Positions 1-6,699 of a stretch of 6,699 bases of DNA are shown here, one piece after another (within the stretch, counting starts at the first letter, position 1; every line of letters begins with the position of its first letter). A program made the position numbers and the translations under genes. This DNA is from a virus (lineage: Duplodnaviria > Heunggongvirae > Uroviricota > Caudoviricetes): the IMG/VR virus record IMGVR_UViG_2529292716_000007; one strand, written 5' to 3'. Below the pieces are notes generated by a model. That model saw only the letters and a list, made by a program, of their open reading frames with translations. It did no database searches and was not told the origin of the DNA.

Positions 1-457
1 TTAAATGTCTTTCCATTCCCTCCCTCGTCCGTCACGGTATTTATCCGTCATGCTGGATGAACGATGTCCAAGGAGCGCCTGAGTGAAATCACCGCCTTTT
101 TCTGCTGAGTGCAGGCGACCGGATAAACTTCGGATTTCATGAAATGGCGGTGGGTCACCTTCCCATTTCAATCCGGATGTGTCTCGGGCAATCCTGAACT
201 GTGCTGCGATTGTCCTGGCTGTCTTCCCTCCGAGTAACTTTTCGTTTTTACCGTTTATTTTTTTCAAGTTATCCAGTACATCGGCAAGTGTTAAATTCAA
301 TCTGGAAATCGTGGTGGGGAGAGAAATGCGAATTTTTGCCCCTGTTTTTTGTTGTTCCACGTATAGCCTGCCATCTCTTATATCCTCCCATCTCATAGCC
401 GCCAGATCTCCTTCGCGCTGTCCTGTTACCAGTGCAAGATCCATGCAAAGGCCGAAC
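1..457 (-). pseudogene. int: Lambda-family tyrosine integrase, C-terminal catalytic fragment; N-terminal part replaced by IS600
   Basis: Minus-strand ORF ends with the stop at 1-3 and a C-terminus ...HEIRSLSGRLH...LLGHRSSSMTDKYRDGRGREWKDI, closely resembling the lambda Int C-terminus (R/H boxes and catalytic Tyr in the LLGH...Y motif). The reading frame runs into the IS600 left end at 458, so the first codons of the track ORF (MSVKLRLPQ) are IS-derived and most of the N-terminus is absent. Confidence 0.8.
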
Positions 458-521
458 TGAGGTAGCCTGAGTTTAACGGACACTCCTTCCTGAAATAGAA
501 TGGCATCAGAAGGAGCTAATA

Positions 522-824
522 ATGAGCAGAAAAACCCAACGTTACTCTAAAGAGTTCAAAGCCGAAGCTGTCAGAACGGTTCCTGAAAATCAACTTTCGA
601 TCAGTGAAGGCGCTTCCCGATTATCTCTTCCTGAAGGCACTTTAGGACAATGGGTTACCGCCGCCAGAAAAGGGCTCGGTACTCCTGGTTCCCGCACGGT
701 GGCTGAACTGGAATCTGAAATTCTGCAACTGCGTAAGGCGTTAAATGAAGCTCGCCTTGAGCGAGATATATTAAAAAAAGCAACAGCGTATTTTGCACAG
801 GAGTCGCTGAAAAATACGCGTTAA
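522..824 (+). CDS. IS600 OrfA, IS3-family transposase N-terminal HTH/leucine-zipper subunit
   Basis: 100-aa ORF MSRKTQRYSKEFKAEAVR... with an HTH and a C-terminal leucine-zipper-like segment (LQLRKALNEARLERDILKKATAYF), the conserved IS3-family OrfA architecture. An A-rich SD-like stretch (AGAAGGAG) lies upstream at about 508-515. Confidence 0.85.
   Translation: MSRKTQRYSKEFKAEAVRTVPENQLSISEGASRLSLPEGTLGQWVTAARKGLGTPGSRTVAELESEILQLRKALNEARLERDILKKATAYFAQESLKNTR
773..780 (+). other. Putative -1 programmed ribosomal frameshift site (A AAA AAA G) joining orfA and orfB
   Basis: A7G run at 773-780 sits in the orfA 0-frame (TTA AAA AAA GCA). A -1 slip puts the ribosome into the orfB frame (start positions congruent to 2 mod 3). 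Position near the 3' end of orfA matches IS3-family frameshift windows. Confidence 0.6.
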
Positions 825-859
825 TCGAACAATGGCGACAACAATTTCCCATTGAAGCG

Positions 860-1678
860 ATGTGTCAGGTATTTGGTGTATCCAGGAGCGGTTATTACAA
901 CTGGGTACAGCATGAACCCTCAGACAGAAAACAAAGTGATGAGCGGCTAAAACTGGAGATTAAGGTGGCACATATCCGCACTCGCGAAACATATGGAACC
1001 CGGCGGCTCCAGACGGAGCTGGCAGAGAATGGCATCATCGTTGGTCGTGACCGACTGGCACGTCTTCGTAAGGAGCTAAGGCTACGCTGTAAGCAGAAAC
1101 GCAAGTTCAGAGCGACTACGAACTCGAACCACAATCTGCCAGTTGCGCCAAATCTGCTGAACCAGACGTTCGCTCCTACAGCACCAAATCAGGTCTGGGT
1201 GGCGGACCTGACGTATGTTGCCACACAGGAGGGATGGTTGTACCTCGCTGGCATCAAAGATGTTTATACGTGCGAAATTGTCGGCTACGCCATGGGAGAG
1301 CGCATGACAAAAGAGCTGACAGGTAAAGCCCTGTTTATGGCGCTCAGGAGCCAGCGCCCACCTGCCGGGCTAATCCACCACTCTGATCGAGGTTCACAGT
1401 ACTGCGCATACGATTACCGGGTCATACAGGAGCAGTCTGGTCTGAAAACATCAATGTCGCGTAAAGGTAACTGTTACGACAACGCTCCGATGGAAAGCTT
1501 CTGGGGAACGCTGAAAAATGAGAGCCTGAGCCACTATCGTTTTAATAACCGGGATGAAGCCATCTCAGTAATACGGGAATACATTGAGATTTTCTACAAT
1601 CGTCAGCGTCGTCACTCTCGTCTGGGGAATATCTCCCCGGCAGCCTTCAGGGAAAAATATCATCAGATGGCTGCTTAA
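860..1678 (+). CDS. IS600 OrfB, DDE transposase catalytic domain, normally made as an OrfAB fusion by -1 frameshifting
   Basis: 272-aa ORF in the -1 frame relative to orfA. It carries the DDE triad context (WVADLTY, HHSDRGSQY, ESFWGTLKNE) typical of IS3-family transposases. The frame is open upstream of the first ATG back towards the slippery site, so the biological product probably spans 522-1678 with a shift near 773-780. Confidence 0.85.
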   Translation: MCQVFGVSRSGYYNWVQHEPSDRKQSDERLKLEIKVAHIRTRETYGTRRLQTELAENGIIVGRDRLARLRKELRLRCKQKRKFRATTNSNHNLPVAPNLLNQTFAPTAPNQVWVADLTYVATQEGWLYLAGIKDVYTCEIVGYAMGERMTKELTGKALFMALRSQRPPAGLIHHSDRGSQYCAYDYRVIQEQSGLKTSMSRKGNCYDNAPMESFWGTLKNESLSHYRFNNRDEAISVIREYIEIFYNRQRRHSRLGNISPAAFREKYHQMAA

Positions 1679-1721
1679 AAAAAGAACAAATGGTAGTGTC
1701 CGCTATTGCCAGTACACCTCA

Positions 1722-2070
1722 ATTGCTCTGCGGCTTCGCTCAGAGCTGGCGTATGTTCCCGGCCTACTGATTCACACAGGTAATCAACGAAACCGGACAC
1801 CAGTTTTCGTTCGCGAGGCGTGATCGCCCCACCGACCGGAGTCCAGTAATCGAAACCCAGTTGCAGGAGTTTGAAAAAACGCTTGTGGAATGCGTAGTTA
1901 CACACACGCTTAAAGTCTGCGTGTATCCACTCACCTATTTTGATTTGATGCAGAAAATCGCAACTCTCCGGCGTCGCCGGGAGAAGTAATCCGGAAGAGG
2001 TTTGTTTGACCAGTTGTATATGTGCCATCGGCTTTCTCCGGTGGCACGGTGTTACACAGCAGGAGTTCAA
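1722..2070 (-). pseudogene. Hypothetical phage protein, 3' end truncated by the IS600 insertion
   Basis: Minus ORF whose last ~15 codons (…RCTGNSGHYHLFFF) lie inside the IS600 right end, so the native C-terminus is missing. Two candidate starts: ATG at 2070 overlapping the upstream stop as ATGA, or ATG at 2028 preceded by GGAGA at about 6 nt. No family recognised. Confidence 0.5.
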
Positions 2071-2354
2071 TCCTGCTCAAGATTGTAGATGAGTTTATTC
2101 TTCAGCAAAAGCAGAAAACCAGCCTTAAAACCAATCTCTTTCAAAACCCGTAATGATGTGACAAATTCGTCCTCACGCAAAATAAAACCGTCCGTCAGAA
2201 GTCCATTACAAAAATAAAATAACACAGCACCGCTCTTCCTTTGTTGAGATTGCAAACATCTAATGCGGCAATGGCTGACAATCGCTCCATTCTCAACGCG
2301 CACAGCATAGAGGCCATTTTCACTAAAAATTTCACGCAATTCTTCGATTTTCAT
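2067..2354 (-). CDS. Hypothetical protein, 95 aa
   Basis: ORF MKIEELREIFSENGLYAVRVENG... with an SD-like GGAAGGA about 10 nt upstream of the ATG at 2354. Its stop overlaps the next start (ATGA at 2067-2070), suggesting translational coupling. Function not recognised. Confidence 0.5.
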   Translation of the reverse strand: MKIEELREIFSENGLYAVRVENGAIVSHCRIRCLQSQQRKSGAVLFYFCNGLLTDGFILREDEFVTSLRVLKEIGFKAGFLLLLKNKLIYNLEQD

Positions 2355-2470
2355 CTTCAGAATCCTTCCAGATAAATAGCTCTCCCCTGTTCGGGGTCCA
2401 TCCCTCTTCTCCCTGCGCGCTACTTAAGTGAGTCGATTCTATCTGCGAAGGTGCGCGAATCAAATTCACC

Positions 2471-2528
2471 GGAAATAAACAACAAAAAACCCGCCGAAAC
2501 GCTGAGAGATCACAGCGATGGGCGGGTT
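2471..2528 (-). terminator. Rho-independent terminator at the 3' end of the hok transcript
   Basis: On the minus strand: GC-rich stem AACCCGCC...GGCGGGTT (plus 2488-2495 / 2521-2528) with a nested stem CGCTG/CAGCG, immediately followed by a U-tract (TTTTTTGTTGTTTATTT, plus 2471-2487). Confidence 0.6.
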
Positions 2529-2603
2529 AAGTGCGGGTGCGTTGAGGATGCCTGACACATCAGAGGTGGGCGGGGATGGGATCAGCTCCCCGCCCGGTCA
2601 CTC

Positions 2604-2759
2604 TTACTTCCTGGATTCGTAGTCTACGAAGACAGCGACCTCCGTCTGGCCGGTTCGGATTCGTACCTCACAGAGGTCTTTCCTCGTTACCAGTGCCGTC
2701 ACTATGACGGTTAAACAGATGACGATCAGGGCGATTAACATCGCCTTTTGCTGCTTCAT
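2604..2759 (-). CDS. hok: Hok/Gef-family type I toxin (small membrane-depolarising peptide)
   Basis: 51-aa product MKQQKAMLIALIVICLTVIVTALVTRKDLCEVRIRTGQTEVAVFVDYESRK: single transmembrane helix plus the conserved RKDLCEVRIRTGQTEVA Hok/Gef periplasmic motif, recalled as near-identical to chromosomal Hok proteins (HokD/RelF, HokC/Gef). AAGGAG SD lies 9 nt upstream of the ATG. Confidence 0.9.
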   Translation of the reverse strand: MKQQKAMLIALIVICLTVIVTALVTRKDLCEVRIRTGQTEVAVFVDYESRK

Positions 2760-2816
2760 AGCCTGCTTCTCCTTGCCTTTCGGCATGTAAGAGGCTAACC
2801 TACATGTGCAAAGCAT
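2604..2816 (-). CDS. mok: Mok-like leader ORF, in-frame N-terminal extension of hok (MLCTCRLASYMPKGKEKQA-Hok)
   Basis: 70-aa ORF from the track; the ML.TCR...K.KEK.AMKQ pattern resembles chromosomal MokC as I recall it. GAGG lies about 9 nt upstream. Assigning a Mok role is by analogy only. Confidence 0.5.
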   Translation of the reverse strand: MLCTCRLASYMPKGKEKQAMKQQKAMLIALIVICLTVIVTALVTRKDLCEVRIRTGQTEVAVFVDYESRK

Positions 2817-2935
2817 GAAATTGGCCTCAGATTAATGTTAAGCGTCTTGCCGGACGCGTAATGTTAACTGGGGCTTTTCTCTATCTGCCTTTTGGTGTTC
2901 ATGCCTGAAGCAGATAGCCTCAAGCACCCGCAGTC

Positions 2936-2965
2936 ATTCTACTTACCTCGCCAATATGAAATCAA
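2936..2965 (-). promoter_or_regulatory. Candidate sigma-70 promoter of the hok/mok mRNA
   Basis: Minus strand reads TTGATT (plus 2960-2965), an 18-nt spacer, then TAGAAT (plus 2936-2941). The predicted start near 2929 puts the 5' element TGCGGGTGCTTGAGG at the transcript start, consistent with the 5'/3' complementary pair noted in the findings. Confidence 0.45.
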
Positions 2966-2986
2966 TCAGAAAGGTGCCCCATAAAA

Positions 2987-3673
2987 TCACTCCTTCTCTT
3001 CTTTACCGTAGTGGAGTTGACCAATTTTGATAAGAGGGCGTCCCTGAGATTTGCGGTGTAGATTGGTATCGCGCAGAGAATACACACAGCCACAATATTC
3101 CTGCTGATAGAATTTTTCGCGCTTGCTGATTTCAATCATACGGGACGAGCCGCCCTGCTTGCGCCAGTTATAATCCCAGTACACCATGCCCGGATAATGC
3201 GCGACGGCTCGCCGCCCACAGTCGTTAACCTGCTGCATATTTTTCCAGCGTGAAATGCCCAGTGAACTGCTGATCACACTGAAACCATTTTCAGCGGCGT
3301 ACAGCGCTGTCCGCTCAAAACGCATGTCAAAACACATGGTGCAACGGATCCCTCGTTCGGGCTCCCATTCCATTCCTTTGGCTCGTTCAAACCAGTTGTC
3401 TGTGTCGTAATCAGCATCAATAAACGGCACGCCGTGTTGTTCAGCAAAGCGAATATTCTCATCCTTACGAATTAAATACTCTTTCTGAGGATGAATGTTC
3501 GGGTTGTAGAAAAAGATGGTGTAGTCGATTCCCGAGGCCTGAAGCGCCTCCATCACCTCACCGGAACATGGAGCACAGCAAGAGTGCAGTAGTAGTTTGT
3601 TTGCCCCGTTTGGGAGCTCCAATTTGGGCCGTTTGAAATCAGCAACTGTCATAAATATGTTTATTGGGGTCAT
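2987..3673 (-). CDS. DUF208/QueH-like (epoxyqueuosine reductase family) putative Fe-S protein, 228 aa
   Basis: ORF with an N-terminal [14 protein letters not shown] motif that I recall as the cluster-binding signature of the QueH/DUF208 family, plus further Cys pairs (CTMCFD, CGCVY). Assignment is from motif memory only. No convincing SD before either candidate start (3673 or 3652). Confidence 0.55.
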
Positions 3674-3792
3674 AAAAATATCAAAGAGTGTAGCATTAGA
3701 ACGGGGCTATCGGAAACAGATGTGTGACTGCTCCCCGCCCTTTCGGGTGGTCTCCTGATGATTTGAGGGTGCAGAAATCCCTCCGGTTAAGG

Positions 3793-3821
3793 ATTAAATT
3801 TTTAACAGTGCTAAATTTAAT
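3793..3821. promoter_or_regulatory. 9-bp perfect inverted repeat ATTAAATTT-N11-AAATTTAAT; candidate operator/protein-binding site
   Basis: Seen directly: 3793-3801 is the reverse complement of 3813-3821, separated by 11 bp, in an AT-rich intergenic stretch at the stop of the 3821-4234 ORF and upstream of the QueH-like gene. Confidence 0.3.
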
Positions 3822-4234
3822 TATTCAGTTCTGGATTTTGTCGCCCTGCGTATCCGCGCTTTCGCGTTACGCTCAATCTGTATCAGCTTTTCTATATTTC
3901 TCCGCCTTTCCTGTTCCTCCTGGCGCAATAGCCTTACATCATCTGCCAGTCTGGTTTCTCTTTTTGCCACAGAGAGCATCCAGTCAAACGGCTCCACAAC
4001 CGCACCGCAGATTTTACAGCGGACCTGACGCTCTTTTTCGTCAACCCGTACAGAGGCGTGATGGCAATATGGTCTTTCCGATGGCTCATAAAGAAAATTA
4101 ACCTGATTACGAGGGTCATCCTCTTTTACCGGAAATAAAACGATATTGCTTAACTCATCTTCTGGTTTTATTTCCATGCTCCTCTCCTTTGATGCGAATG
4201 CCAGCGGTAATTGAAGCCTGATAGCTAATTTCAT
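3821..4234 (-). CDS. Hypothetical small protein with putative zinc-ribbon (C-H-H...C-x2-C) and basic coiled-coil C-terminus
   Basis: ORF with an AGGAGG SD 11 nt upstream of the ATG at 4234, which directly abuts the stop of the upstream ORF. An alternative start at 4177 (MEIKPEDE...) has AAGGAG 6 nt upstream. Contains YCHHASVRVDEKERQVRCKICG followed by a charged heptad-like tail (LLRQEEQERRRNIEKLIQIERNAKARIRR). Family not recognised. Confidence 0.55.
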   Translation of the reverse strand: MKLAIRLQLPLAFASKERSMEIKPEDELSNIVLFPVKEDDPRNQVNFLYEPSERPYCHHASVRVDEKERQVRCKICGAVVEPFDWMLSVAKRETRLADDVRLLRQEEQERRRNIEKLIQIERNAKARIRRATKSRTE

Positions 4235-4657
4235 TCACAGTATCGCCTCCTGAAAATTACCCTGATAGAAAGCCAGTACACGCTGCATAGCTTCGCTCTT
4301 CCGGCACTCGCGACAGATTATATTCAGGCGCCTGTCGTAGCGGCGTATTTCTCCGTCAGGTAATGACCAGATAAGGTCCGGATCAACAACAACCGGTTTC
4401 CTCACCTTTACTCTCGAGAGTTTTTTGCGGGCGCTTTGCCAGTCCTTGCGAGCCTGTTCAGACGGGAATAAGCCGTAGCCAGAATTATATACATCACCAC
4501 TTGCGACCAGTTCTATGCATAAGCGACCGACAGACGCACGACTGATACCTGTTTCATCTGACAACTGCCGAATCGTGACCCGACCGTCCTGATGCACGAG
4601 TTCCACAATTCGCGTCTTCAGTTCTTCCCGCTGTTCGGGAGTAAAAGGTTTCGCCAT
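4235..4657 (-). CDS. Putative winged-helix DNA-binding protein, 140 aa (possibly YdaW-like)
   Basis: ORF with a strong SD (CAGGAGG) 5 nt upstream of the ATG at 4657, 14 nt after the DnaC-like stop. The N-terminal region (RVTIRQLSDETGISRASVGRLCIELVASGDV) looks like an HTH/winged-helix. Position immediately downstream of the DnaC-like gene matches ydaW in the Rac gene order; homology not verified. Confidence 0.55.
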   Translation of the reverse strand: MAKPFTPEQREELKTRIVELVHQDGRVTIRQLSDETGISRASVGRLCIELVASGDVYNSGYGLFPSEQARKDWQSARKKLSRVKVRKPVVVDPDLIWSLPDGEIRRYDRRLNIICRECRKSEAMQRVLAFYQGNFQEAIL

Positions 4658-4671
4658 AAATCCTCCTGAAA

Positions 4672-5418
4672 CTACTTAACAACCCTCGAATGGCTAACAT
4701 TCGGACGCCAGCTCTCCCAGTTAAAATTCACCCAGCGCCCGCCGTTCATGACCATGCGATCCATCACCCGCTCGCCGAGCAATGTTTTCATCACCTCATA
4801 GTTCAGGTTTGTCAGCATCCCCACGCTGCGCATCGACGCTGTCCGGCGATCAACAATCTGGTGCAGCACCACCTGCTCGTTTTTCGTCTCGCGCTGAATG
4901 CCAATTTCATCAAGAACCAGCAGATCCACTTCGCACAGCTCCCGCAAAAATTTTTCGCCTGACTGCCCGTCGTCATAGCTGGCGTGCAGGGCGCTCATAA
5001 CATCAGCCACGGTAACCACAATCACTGTCTGACCGTCTTTCAGCAGGCGATTCCCGATAGCTGCCGCTAAGTGATTCTTCCCGGTACCAGGTTTTCCGCT
5101 GAACGCAAAATTTGTACACCCGGTCATCAGTTCATCGGCGATGGATTTCGCCTGGCTTAACGCGTATCGCTGGCCGTCGTTCTGCACCTGGTAATTCGCA
5201 AACGAGCATTTACGGTGCAACGGCTGGATGCCTGAGCGATTCAGAATTTTTTCCACCCGCAACTGGCGATTCAGGCGGTTGATCTCCTCGCTACGTTTCT
5301 GGCCTTCAGCAAGTTGCCACTCGCGCCACTCCGCTACCGTTCTGAATGGGGCGGTTACATGTGGCGGGGTCAGTCGGCGGATGCGTTCCAGAACGCCGCC
5401 TGTCGCAATATTTTTCAT
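4672..5418 (-). CDS. ydaV: DnaC-like AAA+ helicase loader, prophage replication protein (YdaV-like)
   Basis: 248-aa ORF with Walker A (FSGKPGTGKNHLAAAIG) and Walker B (DLLVLDEIG), the DnaC/IstB-like ATPase fold. Length and N-terminus MKNIATG... match my recollection of Rac prophage YdaV. It follows the initiator gene with a 6-nt gap, as in phage O/P-type modules. Confidence 0.8.
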   Translation of the reverse strand: MKNIATGGVLERIRRLTPPHVTAPFRTVAEWREWQLAEGQKRSEEINRLNRQLRVEKILNRSGIQPLHRKCSFANYQVQNDGQRYALSQAKSIADELMTGCTNFAFSGKPGTGKNHLAAAIGNRLLKDGQTVIVVTVADVMSALHASYDDGQSGEKFLRELCEVDLLVLDEIGIQRETKNEQVVLHQIVDRRTASMRSVGMLTNLNYEVMKTLLGERVMDRMVMNGGRWVNFNWESWRPNVSHSRVVK

Positions 5419-5772
5419 GGTCCGTTACCCCCTGAAGCCTGGCGGGATCGCACTGTCCGGCAACGAGACGGTGTTAACCTGTCGGAGCAACGTCTCAGGC
5501 CGAACACCTTTCGGCGCGAACAGGCCCTGGTATTCATTGGCGATGCTGTGTCGAATCACCTGCTCAGGTGTAAAACCCTGCTGACGGAATTTTTCCAGTT
5601 CCCGTATCGCCCCGTTAGCGCCCTGCTCCGTTCGAATCGGTTTTCGCAATGCCTGTCTGAACCGGACCCACTCATGCCAGAGTGTTTCCGGCAACCAATC
5701 GGGCAGCTCAATAGCCTCCGGCTCGAATTTTTTAGACGCTCGTTTTTGGCGAGGGGGAGATCAGTATTTAGA

Positions 5773-5817
5773 TCTTCCTCTTCCTCTTCCTCTTCCTCTT
5801 CCTCTTCCTCTTCCTCT
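5773..5817. repeat. Hexanucleotide microsatellite (TCTTCC)7.5, i.e. (GAAGAG)n on the coding strand, encoding a poly-Glu tract
   Basis: Seen directly: 45 bp of perfect TCTTCC repeats. In the minus frame that is open across it, it reads as 14 consecutive Glu; the other two minus frames read (RG)n and (KR)n. Confidence 0.95.
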
Positions 5818-5960
5818 GGTAACGCTTTTTGATCCGTTTGTGTAACGCTGGCAGCGTTACCTTTTCGTTTCAGTTCGCGTATTTTTGTTACTCGCTCGTT
5901 TGTAACCGCCCGTTTTTTTTAGAGCTTTTTCCGTTATGACGTTCAAAGTTAGGTAGAGAA
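5818..5960. repeat. Iteron-like repeat cluster (GTAAC core, including a perfect 9-bp palindrome) adjacent to a T-rich tract; candidate phage origin embedded in the initiator gene
   Basis: GTAACGC at 5819 and 5842; palindrome GTAACGCTG-G-CAGCGTTAC at 5842-5860; TTTTGTTAC at 5882-5890; TTTGTAACCGCC at 5899-5910; then T8 and an AT-rich stretch at 5911-5960. Lambdoid origins lie inside the initiator gene as iterons plus an AT-rich region. Confidence 0.35.
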
Positions 5961-6085
5961 AGCCCTCCGTCATTTTCGACCAGCCATCCAACCTGAATTA
6001 ACGCATCAGCAAAACCAGACATAAAAGTGATGCGATCTATTGCACTTTTTGTAACGCCGCGAGCGTTACAATCTGCATTACCGTC

Positions 6086-6699
6086 TGGATTTGCCCCTAT
6101 ATTTCCAGACATCTGTTATCACTTAACCCATTACAAGCCCGCTGCCGCAGATATTCCCGTGGCGAGCGATAACCCAGCGCACTATGCGGATGCCATTCGT
6201 TATAATGCTCGAACGCCTCTGCAAGGTTCTTTGCTGCCGTTAACCCGTCTGGTTTGGGCATGATACTGATGTAGTCACGCTTTATCGTTTTCACGAAGCT
6301 CTCTGCTATTCCGTTACTCTCCGGACTCCGCACCGCCGTGTTCTTCGGTTCAAGTCCCAACATCCGGGCGAACTGGCGTGTTTCATTAGCCCGGTAGCAT
6401 GAACCATTATCCGTCAGCCACTCCACTGGAGACGACGGAAGATCGTTGCCGAAGCGGCGTTCCACCGCTCCCAGCATGACGTCCTGTACTGTTTCACTGT
6501 TGAAGCCGCCGGTAGTCACCGCCCAGTGCAGTGCCTCACGATCACAGCAGTCCAGCGCGAACGTGACACGCAGTCTCTCTCCGTTATCACAGCAGAACTC
6601 GAACCCGTCAGAGCACCATCGCTGATTGCTTTCTTTCACGGCCACTCTGCCTGTATGTGCCCGTTTCGATGGCGGTACAGCAGGTTTTCGCTCAAGCAA
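6086..6699 (-). mobile_element. IS2 (IS3 family), right-end portion; element continues beyond the window
   Basis: Plus strand from 6086 reads TGGATTTGCCCCTATATTTCCAGACATCTGTTATCACTTAACCC, the reverse complement of the IS2 right terminus (...GATGTCTGGAAATATAGGGGCAAATCCA) as I recall it, followed by the InsD coding region. Confidence 0.9.
6097..6699 (-). CDS. insD: IS2 transposase InsD (OrfB), 5'-partial at the window edge
   Basis: ORF product ...[31 protein letters not shown]...[31 protein letters not shown] matches the IS2 InsD C-terminal region from memory; stop at 6097-6099. Confidence 0.9.

Follow-up and report, generated by a model that had tools for sequence, protein, structure and literature searches.

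The window, as we call the whole stretch of 6,699 nucleotides analysed here, carries at 5425-6085 on the minus strand what we take, with a probability of roughly 0.93, to be the dead replication-initiator gene of a Rac-like lambdoid prophage of Shigella sonnei, a gene that IS2 has cut and that bears two inherited frameshifts. Translated on the minus strand, this segment yields one stop-free piece in each of three successive frames: the first runs from 6085 down to a run of eight T residues (DGNADC...GKSSKK), the second from that run to a run of five G (KKRAVTNERV...ALP(E)14DLNTDLP) and the third from the G5 run to 5425 (PPRQKRASKK...IPPGFRG*). Since all three pieces match an intact orthologue of 262 aa (locus L006) residue for residue, the protein-like reading obtained in this way is, on the alignment, far beyond what chance would give. 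Both the coordinates and the three-frame translations agree with the first-pass annotation, according to which such a reading requires two switches of frame, at the T8 run and near the G5 run or the T5 and T6 runs beside it, and the switches are indeed at the T8 and the G5 run; the homopolymer runs concerned lie at 5913-5920 (T8), 5753-5757 (G5), 5728-5733 (T6) and 5743-5747 (T5).

Relatives were gathered by exact-protein look-up of the ydaV product in NCBI assemblies, and hundreds of relatives of the stretch came from a megablast against complete E. coli genomes. The intact references, each a single ORF, are L001 (264 aa), L003 (266 aa) and L006; aligned with them, the fragment corresponds to codon 49 to the stop codon of a gene encoding about 262 aa. 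The features of the window that enter the argument are the following.

4672-5418, minus strand: ydaV, intact DnaC-like helicase-loader gene (IstB_IS21/Bac_DnaA; phrog_50; NF009043)
5425-6085, minus strand: pseudogene fragment of a YdaU-type (Rac-like prophage) replication initiator (three frames; orthologue alignment; phrog_2509)
5428-5703, minus strand: C-terminal domain, DnaT-like, ending ...IPPGFRG (PDB 2RU8, E 9.6e-5, query residues 174-266; phrog_6451)
5752-5758, minus strand: lesion 2, junction of a 10-bp deletion, coding-strand TCCCCCTAAA lost (alignment with intact genes)
5773-5817, minus strand: (GAGGAA)7 in-frame tandem repeat, acidic linker, MLVA locus SS10 (TRF period 6, 7.5 copies, 100% matches)
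5842-5860, no strand: 19-bp palindrome GTAACGC-N5-GCGTTAC, candidate initiator-binding site or origin element (2 in the window against 0.05 expected)
5913-5920, minus strand: lesion 1, A8 on the coding strand (T8 on the plus strand) against A6 in intact genes (alignments and per-locus tabulation)
6051-6069, no strand: second copy of the 19-bp palindrome GTAACGC-N5-GCGTTAC (pattern match)
6086-6699, minus strand: right end of IS2, transposase oriented as the pseudogene (100% identical to copies annotated 'IS3-like element IS2 family transposase')

The two small lesions and their inheritance

The run of six A residues is found in L001, L002, L003 and L006, both in the DNA alignments and in the per-locus table. 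Lesion 1 is a +2 frameshift after ...GKSSKK, and the original frame stops eight codons further on (KKNGRLQTSE*). The T8 run had at first been regarded as one base short of nine, whereas the orthologues show a +2 expansion of an ancestral run of six. Likewise, the second break had been ascribed to a one-base homopolymer slip, and the alignment shows instead a deletion of 10 bp between two 7-bp direct repeats, TCCCCCT, of which one copy is left, reading AGGGGGA on the plus strand at 5752-5758. The intact genes have GATC-TCCCCCTAAATCCCCC-TCGCC as against GATC-TCCCCC-TCGCC in the window and 10 other loci; with the deletion the Leu-Asn of ...DLPLNPPRQ... is gone and the frame is shifted. Restoring a single base at each site, as was originally suggested, closes the frame on paper only, the true differences being +2 and -10 bases. 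In these alignments the short TCCCCCT repeats have the appearance of a hot spot of mutation.

When two A's are taken out and the 10 bp put back in silico, a 669-nt open frame results, the translation of which is 100% identical to residues 49-262 of L006, the length of the Glu run aside. Because of this identity, the two lesions and the IS2 cut are, by comparison with the L006 allele, the sole frame-breaking defects in the fragment; that there should be two such lesions beyond the IS2 cut was already part of the first reading, and both are seen in the alignments with intact orthologues. These orthologues, with A6 and the extra 10 bp, do have the single native open frame which the first reading had thought might mark the segment as intact, but the window copy is broken. 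As expected of a pseudogene arising by slipped-strand mutation, the orthologues have one open frame and both lesions lie in repeats that can misalign, a homopolymer in the one case and 7-bp direct repeats in the other. We envisage that slipped mispairing between the two TCCCCCT repeats would have given rise to the 10-bp deletion, and that the A6 run would have been expanded by two to A8. A separate copy, that of E. coli 2013C-4974 (L002, about 3126-3943), has an independent C5 to C4 frameshift within the first TCCCCCT repeat and is labelled 'frameshifted' by RefSeq.

The S. sonnei-type copies comprise the window, L004 (the Logan assembly of SRA run SRR6248939), L005 and L007-L014. With the window counted among the carriers, the per-locus table places the 10-bp deletion in 11/11 of them; A8 accompanies it in nine loci other than the window (eight NCBI assemblies and the Logan assembly of SRR6248939), and A9 accompanies it in S. 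sonnei 53G (L010, HE616528), all S. sonnei-type copies apart from 53G having A8. In E. coli complete genomes, A8 occurred in none of 162 and an alignment across the 10-bp deletion junction in none of 578. The species is named as S. sonnei in papers for three of the records, 53G (HE616528), FDAARGOS_90 (CP014099) and 2015C-3566 (CP022457), and since the window is 100% identical to the latter two over 1-5793 and 5797-6086, it almost certainly comes from S. sonnei.

This distribution bears on the proposal, which the first-pass annotation left standing beside pseudogenisation, that the 3' portion is truly intact and that homopolymer errors of sequencing or assembly mask it. In its favour one lesion does lie in a homopolymer, and the A9 of 53G as against A8 elsewhere means either that a record may miscount or that the run varies. 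The A8 length in the window assembly rests on agreement with other assemblies. However, the second lesion is a 10-bp deletion and no homopolymer miscount, A8 and the deletion recur together in nine other independent loci from different projects, a short-read Logan assembly among them, and a ninth A would still leave the deletion, plus the IS2 truncation in the window. In other words, separate assemblies of the same lineage contain the lesions that an artefact would have led one to find absent, and we give this explanation next to no chance of being correct. Since miscounting a homopolymer cannot produce a 10-bp deletion, and since both lesions recur in independent projects, the two are, on this comparative evidence, real, inherited and common to the S. 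sonnei loci examined. Given their recurrence in many independent S. sonnei assemblies, the other option originally offered, that of genuine pseudogenisation, is the right one.

In 53G itself (L010, around 5189-5863) the A9 run would bring back the first frame while adding one Lys, and the 224-aa ORF called there, which ends shortly after the 10-bp deletion, is consistent with such a restoration. From the assemblies compared, this A9 could be either a real instability in run length or a homopolymer mis-recorded in an older assembly. Whether the run is A8 or A9, the gene as aligned is still broken by the 10-bp deletion.

A further explanation of the longer A run is that the frame is restored on purpose, either by transcriptional slippage or by -1 ribosomal frameshifting at A8 (A AAA AAC), as in dnaX and IS transposases. 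In enterobacteria, runs of 8-9 A residues can make RNA polymerase slip and can also give rise to -1 frameshifting, and a -1 shift at A8 would indeed yield the native downstream frame. A programmed site would nevertheless be expected to be conserved, whereas each orthologue, be it from an E. coli prophage, a deposited phage genome record or a Klebsiella phage, is one ORF without a shift site, and the E. coli sequences have A6. In addition, there is no slippery sequence at the second break, the 5' end with its start codon has been severed by IS2, and relatives are disrupted in another way, by IS600 about 40 bp further upstream. Programmed decoding is accordingly an extremely improbable reading of the A run, and inherited frameshifts in a dead gene are much the better description.

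What the intact gene encoded

The first-pass annotation called the gene a replication initiator, a designation that agrees with a PHROG profile match, with the annotation of near-identical phage genes and with synteny. The profile phrog_2509, 'replication initiation protein', matches L003 over 1-266 of its 266 aa (E 2.9e-91), and phrog_6451, 'primosomal protein', matches residues 101-266 (E 1.7e-40); compared with Pfam, the intact orthologue matched no family at E <= 0.01, lambda O (Phage_rep_O) included. Orthologues 94-95% identical to the intact E. coli query over its full length are present in deposited E. coli phage records and in Escherichia phage Rac; they are annotated 'DNA replication protein O' in vB_EcoS-673R7, -613R10 and -666R9 and ydaU in Escherichia phage Rac (MN652886.1). 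The gene order in E. coli prophages and in vB_EcoS-673R7 is repressor, cro-like gene, a gene in the ydaT position (an 'activator protein cII' according to the phage record), initiator and DnaC-like gene. Of this order the window retains ydaV, which starts 6 bases past the stop codon of the pseudogene, while the upstream side is replaced by IS2. The identity of ydaV is clear from NF009043 (510 bits against a cut-off of 389), from phrog_50, the DnaC-like helicase loader, and from its annotation as ydaV in E. coli. By profile, annotation and position it is thus reasonable to call the protein a 'replication initiator', one that gave no homology to lambda O by any test run. The name 'protein O' in the phage records is an analogy by position.

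We found no experimental work on the function of the YdaU-type protein in the literature searched. The intact protein, of about 262-266 aa, has, besides its N-terminal domain, a basic segment, a poly-Glu linker of acidic character and a C-terminal domain resembling that of DnaT, and its gene lies between early genes of the cro/ydaT type and ydaV; as its position and family annotation suggest, it may bind the phage origin and recruit the DnaC-like loader YdaV. The poly-Glu linker belongs to the normal make-up of the protein, a Klebsiella phage orthologue of 56% protein identity having it too. As regards the C-terminal domain, residues 174-266 of the intact protein align with the C-terminal domain of E. 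coli DnaT (PDB 2RU8, 9ZBT), with which they share the terminal motif NTVS-PDS-IPPGFRG, but the relationship is confined to this domain, the N-terminal two thirds of the initiator being unrelated to DnaT; the DnaT equivalog NF002770 gives 16 bits against a cut-off of 201, over the last 19 residues only, and so does not apply.

Relative to the YdaU-type proteins, then, the repaired window sequence is identical to the intact 262-aa allele over residues 49-262 (Glu run aside) and stands in the same gene order, whereas the window copy as it is, without codons 1-48, with A8 for A6 and with 10 bp missing, cannot encode the protein. The comparison with lambda O is likewise two-sided. Like O, the initiator gene has an early-right operon position directly upstream of a helicase-loading gene and contains repeated palindromic sites within the coding sequence beside a linker region; the lambda iterons lie inside O. 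Unlike O, with which it has no detectable sequence relationship, its partner is a DnaC-like AAA+ loader and not lambda P, its C-terminal domain is DnaT-like and its palindromes are candidate origin sites only.

Palindromic and tandem repeats within the coding sequence

In the intact L006 locus the 19-bp palindrome occurs three times, at 5174-5192, 5366-5384 and 5573-5591, with none expected by chance; one copy lies just before the start codon and two lie inside the gene about 200 bp apart. The copy upstream of the start is missing from the window, having been lost beyond IS2. The Klebsiella phage orthologue (L016) has the palindrome at two equivalent positions, 1649-1667 and 1858-1876, which are 209 bp apart. 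At the second of these sites the local peptide of the Klebsiella phage is ETQKVT as against NAASVT, and because the palindrome is kept where the encoded peptide differs, the comparison speaks for selection that acts at the level of the DNA and not of the protein.

The 14 Glu codons of the linker are encoded by an array that reads (TTCCTC)7 on the plus strand at 5775-5816. Among the loci the copy number of (GAGGAA)n ranges from 3 to 8, always in steps of six bases, leaving the frame unaffected. Since changes in multiples of six never alter the frame, the array has, on this comparison, no part in the inactivation of the gene. The same array is, by its 6-bp unit and the forward-primer match, the S. 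sonnei MLVA locus SS10, of a scheme that is reportedly that of Liang et al. 2007. The SS10 forward primer site is at 5951-5970, where the window differs from the primer in one base and 53G in none; the primer lies 134 nt upstream of the array in the direction of the gene. SS10 has been reported with a 6-bp unit and 2-10 copies (PMC3310650), and its forward primer is ACGGTGGGCTTTCTCTACCT (PMC3420240). In the MLVA papers it is a typing marker only, its place inside a frameshifted initiator pseudogene being unmentioned there. The A8/A9 tract lies between this primer and the array and could shift fragment sizes by 1 nt.

Insertion sequences, residual expression and prophage decay

Homology to the intact genes ends exactly at 6085/6086, which bears out the claim that the initiator gene is cut by IS2; the element adjoins codon 49 and extends past the end of the window. 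In the mechanism proposed here IS2, abutting codon 49, would have separated or removed the first 48 codons, and with them, as the intact loci indicate, the promoter-proximal palindrome and the ribosome-binding site are separated or removed. Because the window ends within IS2, the junction could be either a simple insertion or the outcome of an IS-mediated deletion or rearrangement. It is shared, among the loci compared, only with L004, and L004 is an independent genome since it has 4 hexamer copies as against 7 in the window. The 74-aa ORF that spans the IS2 junction, looked up as an exact protein, gave a single Logan contig of 1.8 kb, which confirms the junction. L008 has an IS2 copy at a distance of about 4.6 kb, where the neighbouring sequence is unrelated, and a comparison of L008 with L011 gave only a local rearrangement.

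Seven S. sonnei loci (L005, L008, L009 and L011-L014) carry IS600, at about 4053-5318, in the same gene and about 40 bp upstream of the IS2 point of the window, and in two, L007 and 53G, the gene is free of IS elements but contains the small lesions. Given that the small lesions are common to copies with three different IS states, we infer an order of events in which the 10-bp deletion and the expanded A run most likely came first, the IS insertions following later and independently of each other.

The wider state of the window fits the earlier description of a decaying prophage. It is heavily decayed: two truncated genes, one for an integrase (1-483) and the other for a DUF1367 protein (1675-2070; 131 of 199 codons), are joined by IS600 at 457-1722. 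Intact relatives carry YbcO, the Q antiterminator, lysis and later genes after DUF1367, and for this reason the whole late region appears, by comparison with them, to have been lost at IS600. An assignment of 457-1722 as IS3 was rejected, identical E. coli copies being annotated IS600. Other genes of the window, all on the minus strand, include an intact 228-aa QueH (epoxyqueuosine reductase; 2987-3673, Pfam E 1.9e-65), a tRNA-modification phage cargo, and a small ORF at 2604-2816, the equivalent of which in related loci, with a called length of 51 or 70 aa, matches the Pfam family HOK_GEF of Hok/Gef-type membrane toxins. Directly after ydaV comes a DUF977 gene, beyond which lies an ORF of 137 aa that weakly matches a zinc ribbon (4235-4657 and 3821-4234); the DUF1627 gene that lies between ydaV and DUF977 in E. 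coli relatives is absent from the prophage type of the window.

The fragment having no start codon, no N-terminal 48 residues and two frameshifts, no working initiator could come from the window, and on this reading of its sequence the full-length product cannot be made. One may ask, however, whether the remnant is partly alive. A mechanical ORF of 89 codons with a TTG start (5425-5694, minus strand) is open over the DnaT-like domain, and it could be expressed on its own, act with the intact YdaV and have been co-opted by the host. For this it may be said that the ORF is free of stops and ends 6 bases before the ydaV start, that ydaV is intact and its exact protein sequence is found in 5731 blocks of the assembly collection, and that IS2 transcription is directed toward the fragment. 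On the other side, the only in-frame starts are TTG, with no Shine-Dalgarno motif at a usable distance by inspection; a promoter and terminator scan of 5300-6250 returned no promoter-like site, and its one 'terminator-like' match, which lies on the non-coding strand, is the 19-bp palindrome; gene callers do not agree on a call for this segment, or on whether there is one; and the S. sonnei loci are 99.0-100% identical over shared segments, so that conservation is uninformative on selection. Such residual activity is, in our estimation, very unlikely. In a more elaborate form, the A tract (A6/A8/A9), the SS10 array and the DnaT-like ORF would together make up an expressed, host-co-opted module driven from IS2 and, separately, the palindromes retained in the window might still act as a cryptic origin or as a protein-binding site, and to this we attach an equally slight probability; if there were such a module, a stand-alone DnaT-like domain could work with YdaV in S. 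sonnei replication restart.

A dead initiator gene remains by far the preferred reading, and as such the window is typical of the pseudogenes that arise in Shigella by IS insertion and slippage, with IS2/IS600 and small indels and with strains differing in their IS hits. It is an instance of ordinary decay of a prophage and of the Shigella genome, already known in kind; what is new here is the corrected description of both lesions and the rejection of sequencing error as their source. In annotation, the stretch is better labelled as one pseudogene (YdaU-type initiator, IS2-truncated, two frameshifts) than as several small ORFs. For the stepwise decay of this prophage in S. sonnei lineages, simple markers are available in the shared 10-bp deletion, the length of the A run and the presence of IS2 or, alternatively, IS600.
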